From positions 24,875-88,874 of the forward strand of contig JAHFHX010000003.1 of assembly GCA_023246655.1 (NCBI GenBank): 64,000 nucleotides of DNA, given 5' to 3'. The position numbers and the translations under genes were made by a program. Source of the DNA: Candidatus Magasanikiibacteriota bacterium. Lineage in GTDB: Bacteria; Patescibacteriota; Patescibacteriia; Magasanikbacterales; GWA2-37-8. This document shows, in pieces, positions 3,793-63,894 of this stretch (position 1 is the first letter of the stretch; every line of letters starts with the position of its first letter). The notes under the pieces were generated by a model that worked only from the letters and a program-made list of their open reading frames with translations, did no database searches and was not told where the DNA came from.

Positions 3793-3835
3793 TGAATAGC
3801 ACTAATTAATTCGTTTTCAACGAAGTCGCACTCAT

Positions 3836-3930
3836 TGTCATTCCGAGCGAGGCCTCGCGGCCGACGAGGAATCTCTGTCCAACCAACGATCGTGTGAGCC
3901 AGAGATCCCTCACAGCGGTTCGGGATGACA
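3836..3930. repeat. palindromic repeat element, family A, copy A (tgtcattccgag...cgggatgaca)
   Basis: Terminal inverted repeats. Near-identical to the reverse complement of the copy at 47217-47303 and alignable with the copy at 16419-16557. Confidence 0.85.
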
Positions 3931-8010: not shown

Positions 8011-8148
8011 ACAATTGAGATATTATAGATACTCTGAGAGTGGTACCATATCGGTCCCGACTAGGTCGGGATAAACTGGGCTGGTTCTCATACTAACGTA
8101 TCTTAACAATACTGTACTCAATCGCTTCAAGTCTGTCAAGATCGTCGA

Positions 8149-8188
8149 GACTTTACGAACTTTACAGACTTTATGGACTTTACAAACT
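8149..8188. repeat. phased GACTTTAYR tandem repeat block
   Basis: Sequence gactttacgaactttacagactttatggactttacaaact, periodicity ~9-10 bp. Confidence 0.8.
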
Positions 8189-8306
8189 CTCACTCCACAT
8201 TCTTCACTACTACTTTAATCCGATCCGGTACAGTTGGTGCCGAAAACATCCAAGAGGGAGTAAAAATAATTTCGGCCGAAGCAACGTGATCGAGCCCCAA
8301 GATATA

Positions 8307-12234: not shown

Positions 12235-12242
12235 ATTTTAAA

Positions 12243-12277
12243 GACTTTATGGACTTTATAAACTTTTGACTTTAAAC
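12243..12277. repeat. phased GACTTTAYR tandem repeat block
   Basis: Sequence gactttatggactttataaacttttgactttaaact, within 10 nt upstream of the start codon at 12234. Confidence 0.8.
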
Positions 12278-12374
12278 TATTACATAGTATACCACAAAAG
12301 CGAGGCTAATAGAAATCATTATAACAAAATAGCCCCGGACGGGGCTATTGTTTTTACCACAATTGCTGGAATAT

Positions 12375-15652: not shown

Positions 15653-15664
15653 AATTCTACTTTT

Positions 15665-15684
15665 AAAGTCTTTATAGACTTTGG
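15665..15684. repeat. phased repeat block (aaagtctttatagactttgg)
   Basis: Same motif family. Lies between the divergent rpsA gene and the gene starting at 15696. Confidence 0.6.
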
Positions 15685-15695
15685 ATTTTTATCAT

Positions 15696-16310
15696 ATGCA
15701 TATCTCCTGGCTCGGCGGCACTTGTGTTAAACTGCAAACTAAATATCAAGAAGAAGATGTTGTTGTTCTCATTGATGCTTACCGACCGACTAAGGGTGAT
15801 TTTCCGCGCAGTTTTTCTCCCACCATTGCGCTCTTCTCCACCGGAGAGGAGGATGCCGCTACCCTATCGCAAAATCCCTTTGTGCTCTCCACGTTAGGCG
15901 AAGTCGAACTCAAAGAAGTTATGATCACCACCTGGCCCGCCGCCGCGGGGACAATTGTTTTTAAAATTAACGCTGAAGGAATTTCGATAGTACACTTAGG
16001 CGTTCTTAACAAAAAACTCACGGCGGATGAAATAGAAAAAATGGGGTCGGTTGATATTTTATTCGTACCGGTTGGCGACGTTGGACGGTATTTGAACGCG
16101 GAAGACGCCGCAGCGTTGGTGACCGCACTTGAGCCACGAGTGGTTGTCCCAATTGCCTACCAATGTGACACAGACCCCACTGCCAAACCTGTAACGGAAT
16201 TTATTAAAGAGTTGGGCCTAAAACCAGATAGTACCGATAAAAAAATAATTCTTAAGAAAAAAGATTTACCACAAGAAGAGACAAAGTTGATGATATTAGA
16301 AAAATCTTAA
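15696..16310 (+). CDS. MBL-fold-like protein (Lactamase_B_3 / YtkL-like), apparently lacking the HxHxDH motif
   Basis: N-terminus MHISWLGGTCVKLQT...VVLIDAY resembles UPF0173 metal-dependent hydrolases. No His-rich motif is visible. The track start at 15681 is a TTG. Confidence 0.35.
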   Translation: MHISWLGGTCVKLQTKYQEEDVVVLIDAYRPTKGDFPRSFSPTIALFSTGEEDAATLSQNPFVLSTLGEVELKEVMITTWPAAAGTIVFKINAEGISIVHLGVLNKKLTADEIEKMGSVDILFVPVGDVGRYLNAEDAAALVTALEPRVVVPIAYQCDTDPTAKPVTEFIKELGLKPDSTDKKIILKKKDLPQEETKLMILEKS

Positions 16311-16418: not shown

Positions 16419-16557
16419 TGTCATCCCGAGCAAGCCTTCCGCCAAAGGCGGACACAGCGCGAGGCCTGCCCGCCTCTGGCGGGAGGGATCTCTCTGTCCG
16501 TCGTTGGTTGATTGAGACAGAGATTCCTCACCCCTGCGACGGGGATTCGGAATGACA
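16419..16557. repeat. palindromic repeat element, family A, copy B (139 bp)
   Basis: Runs from tgtcatcccgag to ggaatgaca. The internal segment gagggatctct...cagagattcctc is shared with copies A and C. Confidence 0.85.
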
Positions 16558-20890: not shown

Positions 20891-22828
20891 TTAAAGAACT
20901 TCTTTCACCTTCTTTACAATCGCCTGTGCATCAATCTCTCCATACGCCAGCAGTTCATCCGGCTTCCCGCTCTTCGGCATCTTCCGCACCGCCAATCGAT
21001 GGATTGAGACTGAAGATTGAATATTGAAGATTGAAAATTCCGTGACGGCCGTCGCTACCACCTCACCAATACCACCCTCCGCGTAATGATCTTCAACAGT
21101 CACAATCGCTTTTGTTTCGTGCACTGCTTTTTCAAGAGTCGCCGCATCAATTGGTTTAATACTATAAAGATCAACCACACGAATACTAATTCCTTCTTTC
21201 TGCAAAACATCGTACGCCTTTAATGCCTCAATCAATGTCACCCCAGCGCCAATCACCGTCACTACATCCTGCCCGCTACTCTTGAGCGTCTTACTTCCAC
21301 CAATTGGAAACTTTTCATCGACACTATACAAAATCGGCGATTCTTTACGCGTGGTGCGAATATACACATTTCCCATATGCTCAGCCGCCGCTTCCACCAA
21401 CCTCTCGGTTGAAACAGCGTCCGATGGATATAAAACCACACTCCCAAAAATTGATCGAAACATCCCTAAATCTTCCAAAGCCATTTGGGACGCGCCGTCT
21501 TCGCCAATTGAGACGCCGGCGTGCGAACCAACGAATTTAATATTGGGGTTGGAATACTGGCTCATTCTAATTTGATCAAACGCCCGCGAAAAAAACGCGG
21601 CAAAGGTCGATACAAACGGAATTTTCCCGCGCCGCGAAAACCCTAAAGCCGTTCCCACCATATTCTGCTCCGCAATATACATCTCAAAAAACCGCTCCGG
21701 GTATTTTCCCTTAAAAAATTCCGCATACGTGGAATTGCTTACCTCCGCGTCCAACACCACCATATTCGGTATCGCCGATGCGAGCCTAACCAAGGCGTTT
21801 CCATATGCCTTCCGCGTAGCAACCGGTTTATCACTTGGATAATTGAAATTTGGTGTTTGGAACTTGTTTGGAACTTGGTCATTGAGATTTGGGGTTGTTA
21901 CTTTCTCGGGCAAAGCTACCGTACCAACTAATGTTTTATCTACCGACCCCAATTCCACCAATGCCTTCTCCAACTCCTCCCGAGAAAGTGCTTTGCCGTG
22001 CCAATTATCTTTATCTTCGATAAACGACACACCTTTACCCTTCAAAGTCTTCGCGATAATCATCACTGGTCTATTTCTATATTTCTCTATTTCTTTATTT
22101 CCAATCGCTTTCTCATACGCCTCCGCAATCTCCTCCACATTATGCCCATCAATAACAATTGTCTTCCAGCCAAACGCTTCGGCCTTTTTCTGATACACTT
22201 CCAGCTCATGTCCGTACATCGTCTCCCCCCGTTGCCCCAAACGATTCACATCAATGATCGCAATTAGATTATCTAATTTATAATGTTCGGCGCAGGCCAT
22301 TGCTTCCCACACACTTCCTTCGGCCATTTCGCTATCCCCCAACAGCACCCAAGTGCGGTACGGCAATTTGTCGAGCTTGGCATTCAGTGCCATCCCAACG
22401 CCGATGGAAAGCCCCTGCCCCAAGGACCCAGTGGCCGCCTCGGTATACGGAAACGCCATTGTGGGGTGACCCTCCAGGCGGCTCCCAAATTTCCGCAAGC
22501 TAAGCATTTCTTCCTCGGATACTTTTCCCGCCGCCGCGTAAATCGAATAAAATAACGGCGAGGCATGGCCTTTAGAAAAAATTAATCGATCATTGTTTGG
22601 AAATTCGGGATGATCCAAATCAGCGCGGAAAAATGGACCACCCCCGCCAGAGGCGGGTCCGCCTGTGGCGAAAAACATGAGTATGGTCATTAAATCTGCC
22701 GCGGAAAGTGATGATGTTGGGTGCCCTGATCCAGCCGCAGTGGTGGAAACAAGACTATAATAACGAATGAGCTTGGCGAGTTGTTGGAGACGTTCGTGGT
22801 TGGTCATAAATAAATAATGATTAAACAC
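20891..22828 (-). CDS. tkt: transketolase
   Basis: Thiamine-diphosphate-binding N-terminus (GSGHPTSSLSAADLM), then the pyrimidine-binding domain, then the C-terminal domain. 645 aa. Confidence 0.9.
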   Translation of the reverse strand: MFNHYLFMTNHERLQQLAKLIRYYSLVSTTAAGSGHPTSSLSAADLMTILMFFATGGPASGGGGPFFRADLDHPEFPNNDRLIFSKGHASPLFYSIYAAAGKVSEEEMLSLRKFGSRLEGHPTMAFPYTEAATGSLGQGLSIGVGMALNAKLDKLPYRTWVLLGDSEMAEGSVWEAMACAEHYKLDNLIAIIDVNRLGQRGETMYGHELEVYQKKAEAFGWKTIVIDGHNVEEIAEAYEKAIGNKEIEKYRNRPVMIIAKTLKGKGVSFIEDKDNWHGKALSREELEKALVELGSVDKTLVGTVALPEKVTTPNLNDQVPNKFQTPNFNYPSDKPVATRKAYGNALVRLASAIPNMVVLDAEVSNSTYAEFFKGKYPERFFEMYIAEQNMVGTALGFSRRGKIPFVSTFAAFFSRAFDQIRMSQYSNPNIKFVGSHAGVSIGEDGASQMALEDLGMFRSIFGSVVLYPSDAVSTERLVEAAAEHMGNVYIRTTRKESPILYSVDEKFPIGGSKTLKSSGQDVVTVIGAGVTLIEALKAYDVLQKEGISIRVVDLYSIKPIDAATLEKAVHETKAIVTVEDHYAEGGIGEVVATAVTEFSIFNIQSSVSIHRLAVRKMPKSGKPDELLAYGEIDAQAIVKKVKEVL

Positions 22829-24377: not shown

Positions 24378-24536
24378 AATTTAATGTACCTGATAGAATC
24401 AACTCTATCCCTCTTTTACATAAAAATCAACTCTATGGTACTACTATAAAAATGCTTGGATTTGTCAAACAGCCGAAAAATGGTACCATGGTATTCTATG
24501 CAAATTCCTTACCGAAAACCAGGCAAATTTAGCCAA

Positions 24537-24998
24537 ATGAAAATCGATCCTCTCGTTACGGAGAAAAAATATCAGGAACTTAACGCCAAGTTAGAAAAAT
24601 TAAAAAATATGAGCCAACCACAAGCAGCCGCCGAAGTGGCCAGACTTGCTGAACTAGGTGATTTTTCAGAAAATGCCGAATATCAAATTGCTAAAGGCCG
24701 TTTGCGAGGAATTAATAATTCGATTCTCCGATTAGAACACCAGCTACATCAGGCAATTATTATCCGCCCACTAAAACAAACGGATACAGTGAAAATTGGA
24801 CACACCGTAACCGTTGAACGGAATGGCAAGCAAAACACTTATCAGCTACTCGGCTCCTCTGAAACAGATCCACAGAAGGGAATCATTTCTCATAACTCCC
24901 CCCTTGGGGGGGCTCTCATGGGGAGGATGGTTGGTGAGATTATTGCTGTAAAATTAGCTGACAAGGAAGTTGACTATAAGATTGTTAAGATTAAGTAA
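24537..24998 (+). CDS. greA: transcription elongation factor GreA
   Basis: Motif LTEKKYQELNAKLEKLK...ARLAELGDFSENAEYQIAKGRL. The likely true start is the MKIDPL codon at 24537; the track extends to 24456. Confidence 0.85.
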   Translation: MKIDPLVTEKKYQELNAKLEKLKNMSQPQAAAEVARLAELGDFSENAEYQIAKGRLRGINNSILRLEHQLHQAIIIRPLKQTDTVKIGHTVTVERNGKQNTYQLLGSSETDPQKGIISHNSPLGGALMGRMVGEIIAVKLADKEVDYKIVKIK

Positions 24999-25081: not shown

Positions 25082-26085
25082 TAAAATAATCGTCGTAACC
25101 ACCGCAGCGCTTGATACATCTTATATCTGACCGGCGAAATAATCAAATCAAACGTACCCGGGTCTTCAGCTACTGTCCCGCCAAACCCAAGTTTAAATCT
25201 GGTCATGCGAGCGTACTGATGTTTCAAATTATATTGATATCTTTCATTTCTATCACTGTGAACTGTGCTTGGCGCAATTCCAAAAAAATCATACTGACTG
25301 TATCCCAACTTTTTGCCCAACTGAATCCCTTCCCACTGTATAAGATGTGAGGCCATCAATTGTCGAGAGTCGTGATCTGAAGCACCAAAAAGATATGTCA
25401 ACGTATCTCCAAAACCAACCAACACCGCGGCGGCCACCGGTTGCTCATTATAATAAATCGTAATCTGGTGTGTTAATGGCGAAGCTAAAACTGCCTGATA
25501 ATGTTCTCTCGGATGGAGACGAAATCCATCGCGCTCGGCGGTCTTATGACTCAATTTCCAAAAACTGTCAAAATCTTTTAGTCTTTCAATCTTCAACTCT
25601 TTCTTCTGTGCTAACCGAATATTATATCGAGTTTTTTCGTGCATGTTGGCGAGGAGCTCGTCATTAGATTTGCTGAGATCAAGAATGGTAGTGGCACGGG
25701 GGGTGAGGTCGATGGATTTGTTAATTAACAATGAACAACTATCAATTAACAAATGTGATGGCTCAACTCTAAACAAAATAATTTTTCGAGCCAAAAAATA
25801 ATCCTTAAAACATCCCCAAACACTCGTTAATTGTTCTTTATTAATTGTTAATTTCGCCACCGGCCCAGCGGGACAAAACCCATACCTCATACCAAACGGC
25901 AACTTAGTATACACTACCTGCGCCTGCGCAACGATTTCGCTACCATCACTCACCCGCAATCGTTCAACAAATTTTCCCTCACTGTGCAAAATCTCCCCCC
26001 ATTCCCACGACTGTAAAAATGACCCGTTATGCTCGGTAAGCCAGGAATTCCAAGTTTTTTTATCATGAGCTAGATGGATATCCAT
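25081..26085 (-). CDS. FemAB-family peptidoglycan interpeptide-bridge peptidyltransferase
   Basis: N-terminus WNSWLTEHNGSFLQSWEWGEIL and overall FemX-like layout. 334 aa. Confidence 0.75.
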   Translation of the reverse strand: MDIHLAHDKKTWNSWLTEHNGSFLQSWEWGEILHSEGKFVERLRVSDGSEIVAQAQVVYTKLPFGMRYGFCPAGPVAKLTINKEQLTSVWGCFKDYFLARKIILFRVEPSHLLIDSCSLLINKSIDLTPRATTILDLSKSNDELLANMHEKTRYNIRLAQKKELKIERLKDFDSFWKLSHKTAERDGFRLHPREHYQAVLASPLTHQITIYYNEQPVAAAVLVGFGDTLTYLFGASDHDSRQLMASHLIQWEGIQLGKKLGYSQYDFFGIAPSTVHSDRNERYQYNLKHQYARMTRFKLGFGGTVAEDPGTFDLIISPVRYKMYQALRWLRRLF

Positions 26086-26123
26086 AACTTTATGGACTTT
26101 CGACTTTATAAACTTTATAGACT
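26086..26123. repeat. phased GACTTTAYR repeat block immediately upstream of the femAB start codon
   Basis: Sequence aactttatggactttcgactttataaactttatagact. Confidence 0.8.
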
Positions 26124-26897
26124 AGTCGCCAGATAACTGGCGACCACCGCCGCCGTCTCCGCCCTGAGTGTCAACGGCCCAAGGGAGCGAATGAGACAGT
26201 CAGTCTTTTCCGCAGCCGCTCGTTCTGCTTTGGACCAACCACCCTCTGGTCCAACAAACACAGCAATTGATTGCGAGACCTCTCTTCCCGTTCTCTCCTC
26301 TGCGGAGGAGAGAAGGAATCGTTCGCGCCCTCTCCTTTGCAAAGGAGAGGGCAGGGTGAGATCTCGTTCAGGCACAAATTGAGTATCGGTAAAATCACAA
26401 AAAATCTTAATCTCATTCTCAATCTTTAAAGCGTCACCTAACTTGATCGGTTCTCCAAATTCCGGCACCACCGCGCGCCCACACTGTTCACTGGCTTCTT
26501 TCATAATCCGTTCAAGACGGGCCCGATTCAGTCCGGTCTTCACGATATGCTCAGTAATTATTGGTACAACCTTCACCACTCCTACCTCCGTGGCTTTCTG
26601 AACCACCCACTCAAAATTATCTCCTTTAAGGATTGCACAATACAACGTCACCGGTCGTAAAGTATTTAGTATTTGGTACTTAGTATGTGGGGTCGCCAGA
26701 ATCTCAATTTCGATCTTAGTCTTATCCATCTTCACGATCTTTGCAGTCTTATTTTCACCCTTTCCATCGCTTAAGAGTATTTCTTCGTCTAGCTTCAACT
26801 TCAAAACCTCCCGCCACTGGTGCACAAGGTCGGGCTTACTGACGGTGAGTGAAGGTTGCGATAAATCACTATCAATGATAAAACGGTGACGACGCAT
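26115..26897 (-). CDS. rsmE: 16S rRNA (uracil1498-N3)-methyltransferase RsmE, carrying an in-frame palindromic insertion
   Basis: RsmE N-terminus MRRHRFII, and a VGPEGGWS knot motif. Contains an extra segment PSPLQRRGRERFLLSSAEERTGRE. Confidence 0.8.
   Translation of the reverse strand: MRRHRFIIDSDLSQPSLTVSKPDLVHQWREVLKLKLDEEILLSDGKGENKTAKIVKMDKTKIEIEILATPHTKYQILNTLRPVTLYCAILKGDNFEWVVQKATEVGVVKVVPIITEHIVKTGLNRARLERIMKEASEQCGRAVVPEFGEPIKLGDALKIENEIKIFCDFTDTQFVPERDLTLPSPLQRRGRERFLLSSAEERTGREVSQSIAVFVGPEGGWSKAERAAAEKTDCLIRSLGPLTLRAETAAVVASYLATSL
26285..26355. repeat. palindromic repeat element, family B (paired hairpins ctctcctctgcggaggagag and ccctctcctttgcaaaggagaggg), inside the rsmE coding sequence
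   Basis: Two perfect palindromes separated by gaatcgttcgcg. A homologous element lies in sucC at 45505-45625. Confidence 0.75.
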
Positions 26898-28656: not shown

Positions 28657-28747
28657 AGTCCGTAAAGTCAAAAGTTTGTAAAGTCCGTAAAGTGACGCTT
28701 GACCAACATTTTACAGACTTTATGGACTTTTGACTTTATAAACTTTC
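28657..28747. repeat. repeat module upstream of tRNA-Lys: agtccgtaaagtcaaaagtttgtaaagtccgtaaagt, then an inverted GACTTTAYR block
   Basis: A 37-bp block is duplicated exactly at 28840-28876. The two halves of the module form a quasi-palindrome. Confidence 0.8.
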
Positions 28748-28758
28748 TACTAATCACT

Positions 28759-28831
28759 GGATCGGTAGCTCAGCTGGTAGAGCAGGGGCCTCTTAAGCCC
28801 AAGGTCCCGGGTTCGATCCCCGGCCGATCCA
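28759..28831 (+). tRNA. tRNA-Lys, anticodon CTT
   Basis: Cloverleaf folded by hand. Acceptor ggatcgg / ccgatcc, D-arm gctcagctggtagagc, anticodon loop ctCTTaa, T-arm ccgggttcgatccccgg. Confidence 0.85.
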
Positions 28832-28839
28832 CTAATGAT

Positions 28840-28930
28840 AGTCCGTAAAGTCAAAAGTTTGTAAAGTCCGTAAAGTCACAATGCGTTAAAACTTTATGAC
28901 TTTATGACTTTCGACTTTATGGACTTTTTT
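28840..28930. repeat. second copy of the repeat module, upstream of tRNA-Arg
   Basis: The 37-bp direct repeat of 28657-28693, then actttatgactttatgactttcgactttatggacttt. Confidence 0.8.
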
Positions 28931-28988
28931 TGCGCCCGTCGTTCCCGCCACAGGCGGGCAGGCAACGGATCATCTGGCTACTACCAAT

Positions 28989-29060
28989 GCTCCCGTAGTT
29001 CAATGGATAGAATATTAGGCTTCGAACCTAAAGATAGGGGTTCGATTCCCTTCGGGAGCA
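28989..29060 (+). tRNA. tRNA-Arg, anticodon TCG
   Basis: Cloverleaf folded by hand. Acceptor gctcccg / cgggagc, anticodon stem ttagg / cctaa, anticodon loop ctTCGaa, T-loop ttcgatt. Confidence 0.7.
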
Positions 29061-43004: not shown

Positions 43005-43840
43005 TTCATAAACGCAGATACAAATTCCTGCGTATTAAGATGGAGTTCTCGTACTTGAGGCAGTTTGCCAGATATAAGATATTTACGAAGCAAACCAGTA
43101 TTATATTCTAAAGCTAATCGTTGTGTTTTTTGTACCGATTGTTTCTCTGATACAGCTGCACGGAAATATAAGGGACTCTTAATCTTTCGAAATACTCTAT
43201 GGATAATGGTTTGATACTGCTCACCTAATAACCAAGATATCAAAATAATTTTGTTAGCACTAAGGTCATTATGAGCAATTTTTTGTGCTACTATCCTAAA
43301 ACCCTCCATAAGCTGAGAGAGTTGCGCTGTGGCACTCAATGTATTGGGATCAATATGAAACGACAAGGCTCCATCTGGTTCCTGCTCATAATATACTACC
43401 TTATTGACGTACCTATCTTGATTTTTGGGATGTTCCTCATGAGCTCCCCAAAACGCAAGGTAGTAACGATCTCGTCCAAGAGAAACAATTTTTTCTGCTA
43501 ACTTTAAAGGAGTAAATGAGCTACTCTCTGCTTGTTGAAGAGCAAAACTTTTCAACTTATCAATTTTATCATGTAGTTGACGCATACGTACTTTAACCGT
43601 TGATTGTATGTCCGTCGATACGGACTGCAGTATCTCTTGATAGAGCTCAAAACAACGAGCAAATCGTCGAAAGGATTCATTATGTATCAAATTTTGAATC
43701 TTTTCTTGTATTTCATGAGGGTTAGATTGACTATCATACAAATCACCGGGTTCGAGCAAATTATAAAAATCATCCGGGGTTCCCTCTCTCATATTGGATT
43801 TCTTAGAACCAAATAATCCCATATATTTGATACTAAACAA
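43001..43840 (-). CDS. hypothetical cytoplasmic protein (279 aa)
   Basis: Overlaps the downstream gene by 4 nt, suggesting an operon. Markedly AT-rich. No motif recognised. Confidence 0.5.
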   Translation of the reverse strand: MFSIKYMGLFGSKKSNMREGTPDDFYNLLEPGDLYDSQSNPHEIQEKIQNLIHNESFRRFARCFELYQEILQSVSTDIQSTVKVRMRQLHDKIDKLKSFALQQAESSSFTPLKLAEKIVSLGRDRYYLAFWGAHEEHPKNQDRYVNKVVYYEQEPDGALSFHIDPNTLSATAQLSQLMEGFRIVAQKIAHNDLSANKIILISWLLGEQYQTIIHRVFRKIKSPLYFRAAVSEKQSVQKTQRLALEYNTGLLRKYLISGKLPQVRELHLNTQEFVSAFMN

Positions 43841-44801
43841 ATGGTTTCACCAACTTCACTAACTCTTCATATGTATCGGCAATCATTGCCCCGACTGCTT
43901 TGAGCGCTGCTTCCTTCTCTGTTGCCCCTTGTCCTCGCGCTACAATTGCTCCCGCGTGGCCGATGTTCATGCCTTCGGGGAGCATCTGAGCAAACTTGCC
44001 CCCGATGTAAATCGCCAAAGGCTTCGTAAATTCTTTATTTTTTATTAATTCAACAATCTCAAACTCATAACTGCCACCATGCTCACCAAAAATAATCACG
44101 GCTTTGGTTTGTTCGTCTTTCTCAAACAGTCGTAACACATCAGCATACGTTGTGCCCATGAGCAAATCACCACCAACATGCACTGCTGCACTCTGCCCGA
44201 GTCCCGCTTGCCGAATAATCCACGACAATTCATTCGTCATACCGCCCGAACGAGAGATAACACCAATCGAACCGGGCTGAAAAATTTCCCGCACTAAGGG
44301 ACCGCCGACAACTCCAATTCGTCCGACATCTGGCACGATCAAACCCAATGAACTCGGACCAACAATCCTGACTCCTCGCTCTTTCGCCGCTGCCAAACAA
44401 TAGGCCGTATCTTTAATCGGAATCCGCTCCACAAAAATATTTATGAGAGGAATATTGTTTTCAATCGCTTCGAGGATGGCGGCTTTGGCGGCGAAAGGGG
44501 GAACGTAAACAACAGCTACCCAATTGTCATTGCGAGGAGCCGAAGGCGACGCGGCAATCTCCCCGTTTTCCTCTTGTCGGGGGGATTGCTTCGCTCCTTC
44601 GTCGCTCGCAATGACAGCGAGAGCCTCCCGCACCGTATCAAACACCGGCTTACCCTCAACTTCCTGTCCACCTTTTTTCGGTGTCACGCCGCACACTACA
44701 TTAATGCCGTAATCCAACATTGCCTTGGCCGCCTTTTGGCCTTCTTTACCAGTCATGCCTTGAATGAGAACGTTGGTTTCGGATGAAATAAGAATACTCA
44801 T
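43833..44801 (-). CDS. sucD: succinate--CoA ligase alpha subunit-like (SucD family), with an in-frame repeat insertion
   Basis: CoA-binding motifs NVLIQGMTGKEGQ and VVYVPPFAAKAAILEAIENNIPL. Extra segment ASDEGAKQSPRQEENGEIAASPSAPRND. Confidence 0.8.
   Translation of the reverse strand: MSILISSETNVLIQGMTGKEGQKAAKAMLDYGINVVCGVTPKKGGQEVEGKPVFDTVREALAVIASDEGAKQSPRQEENGEIAASPSAPRNDNWVAVVYVPPFAAKAAILEAIENNIPLINIFVERIPIKDTAYCLAAAKERGVRIVGPSSLGLIVPDVGRIGVVGGPLVREIFQPGSIGVISRSGGMTNELSWIIRQAGLGQSAAVHVGGDLLMGTTYADVLRLFEKDEQTKAVIIFGEHGGSYEFEIVELIKNKEFTKPLAIYIGGKFAQMLPEGMNIGHAGAIVARGQGATEKEAALKAVGAMIADTYEELVKLVKPFV
44525..44616. repeat. palindromic element (tgtcattgcgaggag...tcgctcgcaatgaca) inserted in frame inside sucD
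   Basis: Same subtype as the intergenic copy at 36307-36428. Confidence 0.75.
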
Positions 44802-46042
44802 ACTGTTTTTGTGGTCACTGCGTTAACCATCTCTGCCAACACTTTCGCCGTCTCGCTCATACTTGTCTCTTTGGTAAATAATTTTATATTGAAATTATTC
44901 CGCGTTGCACACTCTCGCATCAGAGCAAACGCTTCTTGGCTCTCCGGACCATCGCGACGCACCACAATCGGATACGTCGGTTTTATTTCATCGAGCGCAT
45001 CGATAATTCCCAAAAAGGTTTCTTTGATATTGGTAAAATTCGCCACCACTCCCGCCATCCAAAGTCCGCGGAGCGCCGGCTTAGACAAAACAATTTTTGC
45101 GAGTTGATACACTTTCTCTCGCGGCGGATTCCCCGAATACTCCGTATAATTTGCCGGTTTGAGACCAGCTTTTATTAATGCGTCCATATTCGCAATGCTT
45201 GCTCCGCCGCCATTCAAAATCATTGCAATATCGCCGTCGAGCTCAATATATTTCCCGGCCGTACCTCGGTAATACGCTTCGCCTTCATCAATTTTTTTCA
45301 CAGCGACCTCCCGCTCCGTCGGCAGCCGCCCCATCATTGTCCGCGGCTCGAGTTGATTCCACTCCTCATGCCTAAAAAACGCGTCATCATCAATTGCCAC
45401 TTTTGCATCCGCCGCGACCCATTGACCATCGGCGGTTTTAACGAGCGGGTTGATTTCTACGAGACGGGTGTCTTCGGTTAGGAAGCAAGACCAGAGCGAT
45501 TGCACCACCGACGACCACCCCCGCCCCCCTCCTTCGTAAGGAGGGGTCAACGAATCGTTGCGGCCACTTGAGGTGTCCCCTCCTTGCGAAGGAGGGGAAT
45601 AAGGGGTGGTTTCGCTTCGCACATCCACCCACGTCTTTTCAATCTTTTCTTCCGGAACATCCTCAATATCCATTCCGCCCTGTCGCGAATAAATCACCAC
45701 CGGCTGTTTTTTGTTGGTATCGTAAGTAATCGATAAATAATGTTCCTCAGCAATGGAAAGTTCCTCCTCAATTAAAACTGCCGCTACATATTGCCCGCTA
45801 ATATTTAGCTTAAACAAATCATTAATAGCGGCTACACCATCTTCAACACTGGAACAAAATCTTATTCCATTATTCTTCCCGCGCTTACCACTAAGCACTT
45901 GGGCTTTCACAACAAAATTCTTAATTCTTAGCTCTTCAATCTTCATTCTGGCATCATCTCCACGCCGAACCACTACGCCTTTTGGCGTGACAATGCCGTG
46001 CTTTTCAAATAATTTTTTCCCTTCAAATTCGTATAAATTCAT
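44798..46042 (-). CDS. sucC: succinate--CoA ligase beta subunit-like (SucC family, ATP-grasp), with an in-frame repeat insertion
   Basis: N-terminus MNLYEFEGKKLFEKHGIVTPKG, and ...LVEINPLV. Extra segment YSPPSQGGDTSSGRNDSLTPPYEGGGRGWSS relative to the SucC layout. Confidence 0.8.
   Translation of the reverse strand: MNLYEFEGKKLFEKHGIVTPKGVVVRRGDDARMKIEELRIKNFVVKAQVLSGKRGKNNGIRFCSSVEDGVAAINDLFKLNISGQYVAAVLIEEELSIAEEHYLSITYDTNKKQPVVIYSRQGGMDIEDVPEEKIEKTWVDVRSETTPYSPPSQGGDTSSGRNDSLTPPYEGGGRGWSSVVQSLWSCFLTEDTRLVEINPLVKTADGQWVAADAKVAIDDDAFFRHEEWNQLEPRTMMGRLPTEREVAVKKIDEGEAYYRGTAGKYIELDGDIAMILNGGGASIANMDALIKAGLKPANYTEYSGNPPREKVYQLAKIVLSKPALRGLWMAGVVANFTNIKETFLGIIDALDEIKPTYPIVVRRDGPESQEAFALMRECATRNNFNIKLFTKETSMSETAKVLAEMVNAVTTKTV
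45505..45625. repeat. palindromic repeat element, family B (cccctccttcgtaaggagggg ... cccctccttgcgaaggagggg), inside the sucC coding sequence
   Basis: Two near-perfect 21-bp palindromes separated by a gaatcgttgcgg-containing spacer. Homologous to the element in rsmE. Confidence 0.75.
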
Positions 46043-47222: not shown

Positions 47223-47303
47223 CCCGACCGCAGGAGGGATCTCTGGCTCACTCGCCAACGGACAGAGATTCCTCGTCGGCCGCGAGGCCTCACTCGGAAT
47301 GAC
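47217..47303. repeat. palindromic repeat element, family A, copy C
   Basis: Its reverse complement is near-identical to copy A (3836-3930). Overlaps the yvcK stop codon and the N-terminal extension of the GNAT ORF. Confidence 0.85.
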
Positions 47304-48276
47304 AATTAAATAAATCCACCAAAATTTTCGACAATTTCTCCGAACTCAACCCTCCTTCTTCCTTTTCAAAATCTGCTCCAATAATATTTTTATTTTTAAT
47401 ATTTTCAATATCTTTCATAAACGTGCCCCATTTTTTTTCTGCATACTTTCTCTGCTGCGCTGGAGTCAGCATGGAATTATTATACACCACCACATCAATT
47501 TTTCGTGGCAGATAGCGCTCTAATTGCTCTACAAAATCACTCAACCGTTCCGGGCCGGTCTCACCTTCAAGCTCATAAGCATCGCCCGCAACATATATGA
47601 GTTGCGCCGGTGATTGTGTAATGGCTTCTTTCGTTCCGGTTGGCAACAATGTTGCCACGACACTTGTATAAAGACTCCCCGGACTCAAAAAAATATAATC
47701 GGCTTGTTCAATAACCTCACCAGCGCCATCGTACATAACAGCATTTGGTTCCAACCATACTCGGCTAATCTTGAGCGATCGATCATACGTCGGTCGATCA
47801 ATCGCCGCTTCAGTCTTTATAATGGTACCATTCACAAGCTCCGCACACAAATCATTCATCTCAAGCGTCGCGGGGTATACATGCCCAACCGCTTCCACCA
47901 CTTCCTCAAGAGTTCTCAAGGCGCTTACATAATCACTCTCGTACGCAGCTAAAAAAGCGATAAATAAACTCCCCAAATTTGGGCGACTCGTTCCAGCAAA
48001 CACGGCATCGAGTTGCGGCGCCTTTGTACAACGATTTGTATAAAAAATTTTTCTAAGAACTGCATAATCATAAGGAGAAAGTGCAAGCGCTGCCCGAACA
48101 ACATCGGCTGGTGGCGGAACATTAAACTCACGCCGCACCACCCCCATAGAGCGACCGGAATCACTCATGGTGATAACTGCTGAAATATCTAAACGATCAG
48201 AAAATTTCTTGAGAGCGTTCAAGACAACGGCACTTCCGTTTCCCCCACCAATAACAACAACTTTCTTCTTAACCAT
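47290..48276 (-). CDS. yvcK: gluconeogenesis factor YvcK / CofD-like (UPF0052) protein
   Basis: Motif VVVIGGGNGSAVVLNALKKF...ISAVITMSDSGRSMG. 328 aa. The last 4 codons and the stop are supplied by the repeat element. Confidence 0.75.
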   Translation of the reverse strand: MVKKKVVVIGGGNGSAVVLNALKKFSDRLDISAVITMSDSGRSMGVVRREFNVPPPADVVRAALALSPYDYAVLRKIFYTNRCTKAPQLDAVFAGTSRPNLGSLFIAFLAAYESDYVSALRTLEEVVEAVGHVYPATLEMNDLCAELVNGTIIKTEAAIDRPTYDRSLKISRVWLEPNAVMYDGAGEVIEQADYIFLSPGSLYTSVVATLLPTGTKEAITQSPAQLIYVAGDAYELEGETGPERLSDFVEQLERYLPRKIDVVVYNNSMLTPAQQRKYAEKKWGTFMKDIENIKNKNIIGADFEKEEGGLSSEKLSKILVDLFNCHSE

Positions 48277-63199: not shown

Positions 63200-63246
63200 A
63201 CTTTATAAACTTTCAGACTTTACAGACTTTACAGACTTTCAACTTC
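63200..63246. repeat. phased GACTTTAYR repeat block 13 nt upstream of the PRTase start
   Basis: Sequence actttataaactttcagactttacagactttacagactttcaactt. Confidence 0.8.
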
Positions 63247-63894
63247 GTCTCCCTCCCATTCCTTCATAAATTGTTCAATGAACAAGTTGGTAAAACGGAT
63301 CTTGTGCTGTGCAATTCGCCGAGCGGTGGCAGTATTCAGACGATCTGTGAGCTTCAACACTCGTTCATAAAAACTCCCGAGACTGCTTCCTTTATTTTTC
63401 TCCCGCTCATAGGCATATTTTGTTAATTGTTTACGCACCTTCATACCGGGGTCGTAAATCGGCCGGCCATAATAACCACCGGATGCGAACCGTCGCGCTA
63501 CTCCAATCGCTCCAAAACTATCCAAAAAATTAGCATCTTGTACAATTTGACCCTCCAAAGTACGTGGTTTCTTAGTTTCAACACCACCATATTTAATCTC
63601 ATGGGCAATATGTAAAATATTACTTTTGAGCGGATCTTCAATTCCTAAAATATCCATCATGCCAAATAAAATAAGTGGGCCTTTCTCTGCATTAAACGAA
63701 TAATCCGAATGCTCACCGAGATTGTGTAACAGCGCAGCGAATTCAATAAGCTCAAGATCACCGCCCTCTTTGGTCTGAATGAACTGAGCACACTTCCACA
63801 CCCGCTCAACATGATACCAATCATGACCGGATGGCTCATTATAGAGCTTAGATTTTACGTATTCAGCAGTTTTTTGAATAAGTTCTTTGGACAT
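63229..63894 (-). CDS. HD-domain phosphohydrolase
   Basis: SGHDWYHVERV (His...HD) and AALLHNLGEH. 221 aa. Confidence 0.6.
   Translation of the reverse strand: MSKELIQKTAEYVKSKLYNEPSGHDWYHVERVWKCAQFIQTKEGGDLELIEFAALLHNLGEHSDYSFNAEKGPLILFGMMDILGIEDPLKSNILHIAHEIKYGGVETKKPRTLEGQIVQDANFLDSFGAIGVARRFASGGYYGRPIYDPGMKVRKQLTKYAYEREKNKGSSLGSFYERVLKLTDRLNTATARRIAQHKIRFTNLFIEQFMKEWEGDEVESL

Follow-up and report, generated by a model that had tools for sequence, protein, structure and literature searches.

A BoxC/PIT-like repeat doublet lying in frame within rsmE of a Candidatus Magasanikiibacteriota bacterium

The rsmE gene of a Candidatus Magasanikiibacteriota bacterium (assembly GCA_023246655.1, contig JAHFHX010000003.1) encodes a member of the 16S rRNA m3U1498 methyltransferase family and contains an element of ~93 bases built from two palindromic hairpins. 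We analyzed this element within a 64,000-nucleotide stretch of the contig (positions 24,875 to 88,874 of the forward strand; here called the window), and all coordinates are counted from the first base of that stretch (Table 1). The most probable reading, in our judgment, is that a doublet of repeats of the BoxC/PIT (potential intrastrand triplex) type either was inserted into a permissive loop of RsmE or grew there out of a single unit already present, and that it is read through and tolerated. The rsmE segment appears to be a copy of a dispersed noncoding repeat family and not a protein module.

The rsmE product matches PF04452 (E = 4.3e-36) and PUA_4 in a Pfam profile search, and its open reading frame (ORF) reads ...LPSPLQRRGRERFLLSSAEERTGREVSQSIAVFVGPEGGWS... 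across the region in question. The insert translates as LPSPLQRRGRERFLLSSAEERTGRE followed by VSQSIAVFVGPEGGWS. Alignment of the window protein with 25 homologues revealed ~24 extra residues relative to insert-free homologues, directly before GPEGGW; the insert is absent from most of the homologues, and all invariant residues, GPEGGW included, are kept in the window protein. The spacing between the DF motif and GPEGG is accordingly ~46 residues, compared with ~22 in the insert-free proteins P0003 and P0005. RsmE chains in the PDB align only on the two sides of the insert (query residues 5 to 148 and 205 to 253). In an AlphaFold2 model built from the same alignment (mean predicted local distance difference test [pLDDT] score, 85.5), pLDDT, read in 10-residue blocks, drops to 46 to 56 over residues ~181 to 210, between strands at 162 to 167 and 210 to 215. 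The insert is therefore modeled as a disordered surface loop, and we predict that it occupies one in the protein. Alignment and model together bear out the original prediction of an in-frame insertion of about 24 residues just upstream of the GPEGGW motif.

The same position is occupied in other proteins of the candidate phyla radiation (CPR). Eight CPR RsmE homologues (P0024, P0030, P0038, P0048, P0060, P0061, P0063, and P0078) carry unrelated-looking inserts of 20 to 30 residues before GPEGGW, in alignment columns ~275 to 310, of which HCAGRRSKHSNSPGGEYVRVSKDNSLT and IRVNSAKQSQDPDCRVATTPRNDN are examples. These look like translations of further palindromic repeat families, and the position is a general insertion hot spot.

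The rsmE element is an inverted doublet. Next to each of its hairpins, a and b, lies a 10-nt segment forming a mirror of that hairpin's own arm, and therefore each half represents a three-block intrastrand triplex motif (units A and B). A unit, U, consists of a segment plus a palindromic hairpin, so its reverse complement, rc(U), reads as hairpin plus rc(segment), and the whole element is U(A) + linker + rc(U(B)), with the plus-strand layout GCGAGACCTCTCTTCCCG, hairpin a, GGAATCGTTCGC, hairpin b, AGGGTGAGATCTCGT. The two units face each other, and therefore their flanking segments act as terminal inverted repeats, which are complementary at eight of nine positions and make up the outermost stem of the predicted fold. 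This fold is a three-way junction of -56.5 kcal/mol (z = -5.0 versus shuffles), with only Watson-Crick pairs being modeled. Two perfect palindromes spanning 26285 to 26355 had been described earlier. The hairpins do lie there, but the element is larger, the conserved flanking segments having been overlooked; hairpin b is indeed a perfect 26-nt palindrome, whereas hairpin a is a 10-bp stem with a 4-nt loop and is not strictly perfect, because the 20-mer originally singled out is an 8-bp inverted repeat around TGCG.

Structures of this kind are rare in the window. The patterns of hairpin a and hairpin b were each expected 0.00 times (100 dinucleotide-preserving shuffles of the window), and the 64 kb contain only four GC-rich hairpins that have one pyrimidine arm, one purine arm, and a stem of 9 bp or more, two in rsmE and two in a sucC-like gene. 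By itself, the linker motif GCGAACGATTCC is not enriched in the window (7 matches versus 5.6 expected). The homopyrimidine and homopurine arms contain no stop in any of the six frames. We had considered whether entire elements are likewise stop free in six frames, but only the arms are: the rsmE element has five open frames, the sixth being closed by a single TGA, and the sucC element has three. At the gathering threshold, Rfam matches in the window comprised three tRNAs only, with no family for the element region; subthreshold matches to both elements reflected a generic hairpin likeness to microRNA precursors and were rejected as chance. Three further candidates were dropped, namely, programmed translational bypass (a stop codon and matched take-off and landing codons were not seen), an intrinsic terminator (there is no T run at the element), and an assembly artifact (a metagenome contig in ENA carries an identical RsmE gene, and many other assemblies contain homologous elements).

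The sister doublet lies in the sucC-like gene, whose product has ATP-grasp_2 and Citrate_bind domains and homologues that their sources assign to Candidatus Magasanikbacteria (Patescibacteria), several of them under the name citryl-CoA synthetase large subunit. The rsmE and sucC copies share the hairpin type, the flanking segments, a linker motif (aacgaatcgttgcggcc versus aaggaatcgttcgcgcc), and the orientation relative to the gene, and the sucC element also has a stable predicted fold (z = -5.65). Their reading frames differ, yielding RERFLL in rsmE and GRNDSLT in the sucC-like gene; therefore, the likeness is at the DNA level and does not extend to the peptides. The homologous element that had been proposed in sucC is thus confirmed, in another frame.

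In both elements, a unit comprises, along one strand, a pyrimidine arm, the pairing purine arm, and, 1 to 5 nt further on, a purine-rich mirror segment. In unit A of rsmE (CCTCTCTT-CCCG-TTCTCTCC), the segment mirrors its own pyrimidine arm and is not a direct repeat. Over 238 distinct units, matches to the mirror of the unit's own arm averaged 6.05 of 8, compared with 5.31 +/- 0.05 for permuted arms, and 64 units had perfect 8/8 mirrors whereas only 4 had perfect direct repeats. We also scored the purine-motif triads G.G-C, A.A-T, and T.A-T, with the third segment antiparallel to the purine stem. In a pattern-unbiased Magasanikbacteria set, the triad score was 0.774 with the unit's own arm and 0.658 +/- 0.012 with permuted arms, while a direct-repeat control was flat (0.655 versus 0.644). 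Individual units score 7/7 to 10/10 triads; in the window, the score is 9/10 for rsmE unit A and 8/9 and 10/10 for the two sucC units, and a hand count by the same rule gave 8/10 for rsmE unit B (8/9 over nine positions). At the RsmE site, the arms and mirror segments vary among orthologues yet agree within each one (7/7, 9/9, and 8/10 triads).

One subfamily, that with the end motif ACCACCCC, satisfies the triad rule only through T.A-T triads. Since purine-motif triplexes do not form in RNA (PMC4666352), this favors DNA over RNA as the molecule that folds, if a triplex matters. It is conceivable, if rather doubtful, that the three-way agreement among pyrimidine arm, purine arm, and mirror is actively maintained in vivo. 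The sequences concerned vary among orthologous and paralogous copies, with the agreement kept inside every copy, and it persists at synonymous positions of essential genes even though linkers change.

To place these copies in a wider context, we searched 1.39 Mb of Magasanikbacteria DNA, comprising the window, 80 sucC loci extended by 10-kb flanks, and a small number of others, for the three blocks (stems of at least 8 with at most one mismatch; loops of 1 to 6 nt). The automatic census returned 43 units, compared with 0 in five shuffles, and rsmE unit B, which it missed because the stem ends in G/C, brought the number to 44. Open frames of at least 150 amino acids (aa) hold 36 of the 44 units (82%), compared with 84.5% of random positions (P = 0.68). 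The purine-motif strand coincides with the coding strand 16 times and with the template strand 20 times, and codon phases 0, 1, and 2 are used 21, 9, and 6 times; a bias of orientation relative to transcription, hinted at by a small sample of singlets, disappeared in the census. Hairpin polarity is pyrimidine arm first in 43 hairpins and purine arm first in 1, and the flanks contain a segment conserved on one side of each hairpin (GAGACCTCTCYCC-NN or ACCACCCC-NNN). Hosts confirmed by Pfam are Methyltrans_SAM (RlmI-like), CoA-ligase (sucD-like), GlmS, P-type ATPase, citrate synthase, DAO, AdoHcyase, TrmB, and PfkB; with RsmE, the sucC-like protein, and a PHP-like protein, they amount to at least 12 unrelated housekeeping genes. 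The idea of a repeat family residing inside genes is therefore supported by its copy number, its use of both orientations and all three phases, and its variable presence among close orthologues.

This variability is clearest at the sucC site. About half of the 79 relatives scored have an empty site of 51 residues between two conserved anchors, including the closest sucC relative (locus L084; 85% identity, syntenic). The window element was found at the identical site in L085 and L086, another pyrimidine/purine doublet occupies the site in L055, L059, L066, L077, L081, L007, L033, and L004, and unrelated palindromic families occupy it in L005, L014, and L067, with at least three such families overall. 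The family filling the site in L005 and L014 (VILSEAKNL...) is of the same kind as the family A element described below. Three sucC-like homologues (P0126, P0206, and P0211) have a second hot spot in alignment columns ~265 to 280 (FRH-PSTGSGPTVTD-W; longer form, PSTSSGQVSSIGSPQVTD).

At the RsmE site, the nearest orthologues (L001, with 58% identity, and L002) bear one unit at the same position. This unit is related to those in the window, so related RsmE genes with unrelated DNA at this segment, which would have spoken for a lineage-specific loop, were not what we found. The rsmE doublet is identical at 74 of 99 nt (75%) to a doublet in sucD of another Magasanikbacteria genome (L006), where it has the opposite orientation relative to the gene; the two are alike in A+B order, loop TGCG, and end sequences. 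Single units are also present in the PHP-like protein (L049, L012, and L028) and in an RlmI-like methyltransferase (L005), and permuted doublets, rc(U)...U, are found in sucC of L055, L059, L066, and L077 and between genes in L070 and L081.

Genes for the PHP-like protein (~440 aa) from five lineages have different pyrimidine/purine hairpins at the same position, just before SKTRFILGTE (L012, 8822; L028, 18290; L049, 15720; L055, 14677; L066, 16452 to 16492), and the L049 hairpin, ccctctcctcTGCGgaggagaggg, is nearly the same as rsmE hairpin a and also reads SSAEER. Element ends at many loci (for example, L049, L012, and L097) share with the rsmE element the conserved terminal hexamer that marks the GAGACC subfamily, with GGTCTC at the other end. 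We take these hexamers to be a type IIS recognition sequence of the BsaI/Eco31I kind, with both ends facing such that the cut would lie immediately beyond the element; the resemblance may be coincidental.

The pattern GAGACCTCTC-N3-9-CTCTCC-N3-12-GGAGAG occurs in at least 120 metagenome contigs, with GC contents of 0.29 to 0.71 among the matches listed. Among the distinct matches listed, 75% have a stem at least 2 bp longer than the pattern required (chance, ~6%), and many of the metagenome matches listed are A+B doublets. The combination of end motif and hairpin across these contigs indicates that the unit type is widespread in bacteria. About one third of the low-GC matches listed fall in open frames of at least 150 aa, and Magasanikbacteria are distinctive in that their units do not avoid coding sequence. 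On contigs OBJA01... (L101, L148, L133, L153, L183, and L098), the GAGACCTCTC unit lies within a different and larger repeat of ~153 bp, present in tandem copies with conserved flanks (gatgaaaatgg...taacctaaagcctttggtggtaaggg).

The closest known counterpart is the repeat named BoxC, then PIT, and then TM(ECO), found in Escherichia coli and other Proteobacteria, with G/C-rich intrastrand triplex motifs also known in cyanobacteria (PMC4666352, Holder et al. 2015; an earlier source on such repeats, Hoyne et al. 2000, is cited therein). The E. coli units, with the consensus CCCTCNCCC-N3-6-GGGNGAGGG-N3-GGGNGAGGG, are found either alone or paired in inverted orientation with a unit of a second type, their loops are less conserved than their stems, and no mobile-element genes were found in association with them (PMC4666352). 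The Magasanikbacteria units have the same three blocks (a C/T-rich stem, a loop of 3 to 6 nt, a G/A-rich stem, a loop of ~3 nt, and a G-rich mirror), with the stem CCCTCTCC in place of CCCTCNCCC. They likewise have purine-motif triads including T.A-T, singles or inverted heteropairs, loops less conserved than stems, loci that vary between relatives, and no known transposase; the rsmE and sucC units show the three blocks and belong to a multicopy family with inverted A+B pairs. In contrast, E. coli K-12 copies are "always" intergenic (PMC4666352), whereas 82% of the Magasanikbacteria copies lie in long ORFs and are read in frame, and differences also exist in the end motif (GAGACCTCTC... or ACCACCCC...), the loop sequences, and the host phylum, Patescibacteria (CPR). 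The exact TM(ECO) consensus had only 2 matches among 206 loci, both on metagenome contigs adjoining related units. We conclude that the window copies represent sister subfamilies.

The original prediction had likened the element to Rickettsia palindromic elements (RPEs) and called it selfish. RPEs measure 100 to 150 bp, with each family encoding a conserved peptide (Ogata et al. 2000, as reported in PMC10969869 and PMC3733652), and in-frame RPEs have been described (PMC10969869). Like them, the Magasanikbacteria units are short palindromic repeats lying in frame in unrelated housekeeping genes of a small-genome bacterium, in permissive parts of proteins, at roughly tens of copies per Mb, and the in-frame palindromic insertion in rsmE leaves the gene intact. 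By description, an RPE family yields one peptide, whereas the Magasanikbacteria DNA, being read in either orientation and in any of the three phases, encodes no conserved peptide; moreover, the mirror third-strand block is not described for RPEs. The family thus appears to be of the BoxC/PIT intrastrand triplex type rather than a relative of RPEs. The notion of an RPE-like, tolerated in-frame repeat is supported, but selfishness is put in doubt by the nucleotide conservation of orthologous copies, which is unlike that of a decaying parasite.

Repetitive extragenic palindromic (REP) sequences and their composites, bacterial interspersed mosaic elements (BIMEs) and REPINs, offer another comparison. 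REPs are overwhelmingly extragenic, and different REPs may occur at about the same site of one gene across species (PMC3733652; PMC3116915); intragenic REP singles and dimers encoding 20 to 30 aa are also known (PMC3733652). Shared traits are the short palindromic unit with a one-sided conserved flank, the occurrence as singlets and as head-to-head or tail-to-tail dimers, and intragenic dimers of 20 to 30 aa. In the Magasanikbacteria copies, by contrast, the flank has ~10 nt that form a mirror of the arm, units are not kept out of coding sequence, and no GTAG or CGTC tag stands next to the stems (flanks, ...GACCTCTCTTCCCG before and CAGGGTGAGATC after). The rsmE element also possesses the terminal inverted repeats that characterize miniature inverted-repeat transposable elements (8/9 positions). 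In sum, it behaves like an RPE or an intragenic REP dimer and is built like BoxC/PIT. A literature search of limited coverage, which is no proof of absence, found nothing specific on in-frame palindromic elements in CPR/Patescibacteria. The repeat type, BoxC/PIT, is known; what is new is the presence of triplex-motif repeats in frame in housekeeping genes of a CPR lineage.

Orthologous sucC elements provide a measure of constraint. We compared third bases of codons for identical residues inside and outside the element and found the same third base inside at 22/22 codons for L055/L066, 20/21 for the window/L086, and 32/32 for L055/L077, compared with 50%, 52%, and 74%, respectively, elsewhere in the gene. 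The alignments show no change in stems and third strands, whereas the loops and the central linker have diverged to about the extent of neutral sites. The diverged linker implies that the copies are as old as the divergence of the genes, and the structured blocks are therefore constrained. The constraint could reflect selection on structure; alternatively, one arm may template the correction of the other, with selection acting on the peptide as well. In L081, the second unit has decayed through point mutations. We found no description of synonymous-site conservation in orthologous intragenic triplex-motif copies in a limited literature search.

Taken together, these results make it probable that a BoxC/PIT-type doublet came to lie in rsmE by insertion or expansion. 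The doublet, or initially a single unit, would have inserted or expanded at a surface-loop position before GPEGG. Its arms lack stop codons in any frame and its length preserves the frame, so that the ribosome would read through it into a presumably disordered peptide, rich in Pro, Ser, and Leu and then in Gly, Arg, and Glu, with the catalytic motifs of RsmE kept. Movement might be brought about by a trans-acting activity or by a repair process working on folded single-stranded DNA, and the insert would be neutral or nearly neutral for the host protein. Several points weigh against this account. Translation through the insert is suggested by the intact frame only. No transposase or other mobilizing gene was identified in the window, where no systematic domain scan of the ORFs was made, and no target-site duplication was seen by eye at the rsmE, sucC, and intergenic copies, for which there was neither a formal scan nor a search for insertion sequences. 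The exact TM(ECO) consensus has 0 matches in the window, and only two doublets are visible in its 64 kb. The synonymous-site conservation in orthologous sucC elements is unlike that of a neutral, decaying insert. Finally, L001 and L002 already have one unit at the shared site, and the rsmE insertion may therefore be no recent jump but possibly old and partly inherited vertically.

The conservation of third positions also speaks for a different explanation, in which the hairpin and third-strand blocks are a selected cis-acting nucleic acid structure inside genes and more than tolerated repeat DNA. Such a structure might pause replication or transcription as DNA, mark sites of recombination or repair, slow ribosomes between protein segments as an mRNA hairpin, or serve as an RNase III target. 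The invariance of stems and third strands while loops and linker drift, and the matching of arm and mirror within each RsmE orthologue while both differ across orthologues, fit this explanation as well. Nevertheless, we consider it unlikely. L084 does without the element, having an empty sucC site and a short sucD; L081 has allowed its second unit to decay; hosts and positions are unrelated, with orientation and phase unbiased; and the conservation could stem from templated correction between arms together with peptide selection. In E. coli, moreover, functional assays of PIT elements detected neither promoter nor terminator activity nor any blocking of polymerase in vivo, and although a TM single strand forms a triplex in vitro, dimethyl sulfate footprinting does not support a stable triplex in vivo (PMC4666352).

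An origin on the spot, in which local errors of replication, either template switching or hairpin-primed synthesis, expanded a preexisting pyrimidine tract independently in the rsmE and sucC loops, would account for the recurrence of insertions in the same loops across many lineages, for the target-site duplication not being seen by eye, and for the single unit in RsmE orthologues where the window genome has two. It seems very improbable, however, given the 99-nt similarity of the rsmE doublet to the sucD doublet of another genome, down to order, loop, and ends, and the spread of GAGACCTCTC with its hairpin, mostly with extended stems, over metagenome contigs of widely different GC contents; template switching, moreover, produces inverted or direct repeats, and mirror repeats are observed. 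We give least credence of all to a lineage-specific loop selected for a protein-level role, with palindromy arising incidentally as Pro and Ser codons complement Gly and Arg codons. The peptides at the RsmE site are alike in three orthologues (PSPLQRRG, PTPLRGG, and SLPLERGG), but pairing is perfect at third codon positions too, other genes use this DNA in different frames and on the opposite strand, copies lie between genes in L070 and L081, the peptide is predicted to be disordered, and most RsmE proteins lack it. An inserted or expanded repeat doublet consequently remains our preferred explanation.

The window contains other repeats. A family A palindromic element (GTCATTGCGAGCGACGAAGGAGCGAAGCAATCC ... 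GCTCCTCGCAATGAC) lies in frame in sucD, encoding VIASDEGAKQSPRQEENGEIAASPSAPRNDN; the sucD product has 322 aa in the window and 299 aa in L084, so the family A insert is missing in L084. Two 47-nt copies that are 98% complementary (ATTGTCATTCCGAGCGAGGCCTCGCGGCCGACGAGGAATCTCTGTCC), apparently intergenic, look related to family A. A third type of GC-rich hairpin (CCCGCC-AGA/TCT-GGCGGG) with shared flanks has one intergenic copy and one inside a 645-aa ORF, with the peptide TGGPASGGGGPFFR, and may be another in-frame repeat. An AT-rich repeat based on GACTTTATGGACTTT/GACTTTACAGACTTT has eight intergenic copies in the window, one directly downstream of rsmE and several around tRNA genes. A further stretch with CCCCCC-TT-GGGGGG, followed 7 to 8 nt on by GGGGAGG, is below the census thresholds and is a possible degenerate unit.

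Table 1. Positions of the rsmE and sucC elements, their parts, and other repeats in the window
Feature	Position	Strand	Description
rsmE	26115-26897	minus	Host gene; 260 aa; ORF list, Pfam
Whole rsmE element	26274-26366	none	Inverted doublet of two triplex-motif units, A + B
Terminal inverted repeat CGAGACCTC	26274-26282		Pairs with GAGATCTCG
Terminal hexamer GAGACC	26275-26280
Third-strand segment, unit A	26277-26286		GACCTCTCTT on plus strand, AAGAGAGGTC on minus strand; mirrors arm of hairpin a; 9/10 triads
Loop CCCG	26287-26290		Between third strand of unit A and hairpin a
Hairpin a	26291-26314		ttctctcctc-TGCG-gaggagagaa; encodes LLSSAEERT
Linker ggaatcgttcgc	26315-26326		Motif GC(G)AACGATTC common with sucC copy
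Hairpin b	26327-26352		gccctctcctttg/caaaggagagggc; encodes LPSPLQRRG
Third-strand segment, unit B	26354-26363		GGGTGAGATC on plus strand; after the 2-nt loop CA; 8/10 triads
Terminal inverted repeat GAGATCTCG	26358-26366		Pairs with CGAGACCTC
sucC-like gene	44798-46042	minus	Host of sister element; ATP-grasp_2 + Citrate_bind
Sister doublet in sucC-like gene	45513-45611		~45505-45625 with outer stem ACCACCCC/GGGGTGGT
sucC third strand GACCACCCC	45513-45521		8/9 triads
sucC hairpin, first	45526-45546
sucC linker	45547-45575		Contains aacgaatcgtt
sucC hairpin, second	45576-45598
sucC third strand AGGGGTGGTT	45602-45611		10/10 triads
sucD	43833-44801	minus	Host of family A element
Family A element	44505-44615		In frame in sucD
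47-nt copies	3834-3880, 47260-47306		Apparently intergenic
Third hairpin type, genic copy	22626-22664		In ORF 20891-22828 (minus)
Third hairpin type, intergenic copy	16462-16500
AT-rich repeat	8141-8203, 12235-12279, 15660-15704, 26078-26122, 28699-28752, 63208-63252		Intergenic
tRNA genes	28759-29060
Possible degenerate unit	24896-24935		In ORF 24456-24998 (plus)

The rsmE doublet and its sister copies extend the phenomenon of Rickettsia-style repeat DNA in genes to another type of element and another phylum. Repeats of the BoxC/PIT type, known as intergenic in E. coli and cyanobacteria, also reside within essential genes of ultrasmall CPR genomes, which have little intergenic space. Their presence explains a group of odd low-complexity inserts (Pro/Ser/Leu and Gly/Arg/Glu) that make CPR proteins longer and can mislead alignment, domain annotation, and structure prediction, and the copies may be viewed as natural insertion-tolerance experiments that mark permissive loops. 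The biophysics and footprinting of E. coli BoxC/PIT had left the question of triplexes in vivo undecided. Within genes, synonymous sites supply a built-in neutral baseline, and in vivo constraint on intrastrand triplex motifs thus becomes testable by comparative genomics. If the three-way agreement is indeed maintained, the intragenic units of CPR bacteria would indicate, on comparative grounds, that cells do form an intrastrand DNA triple helix, or possess a protein reading that geometry, and that it matters to them.

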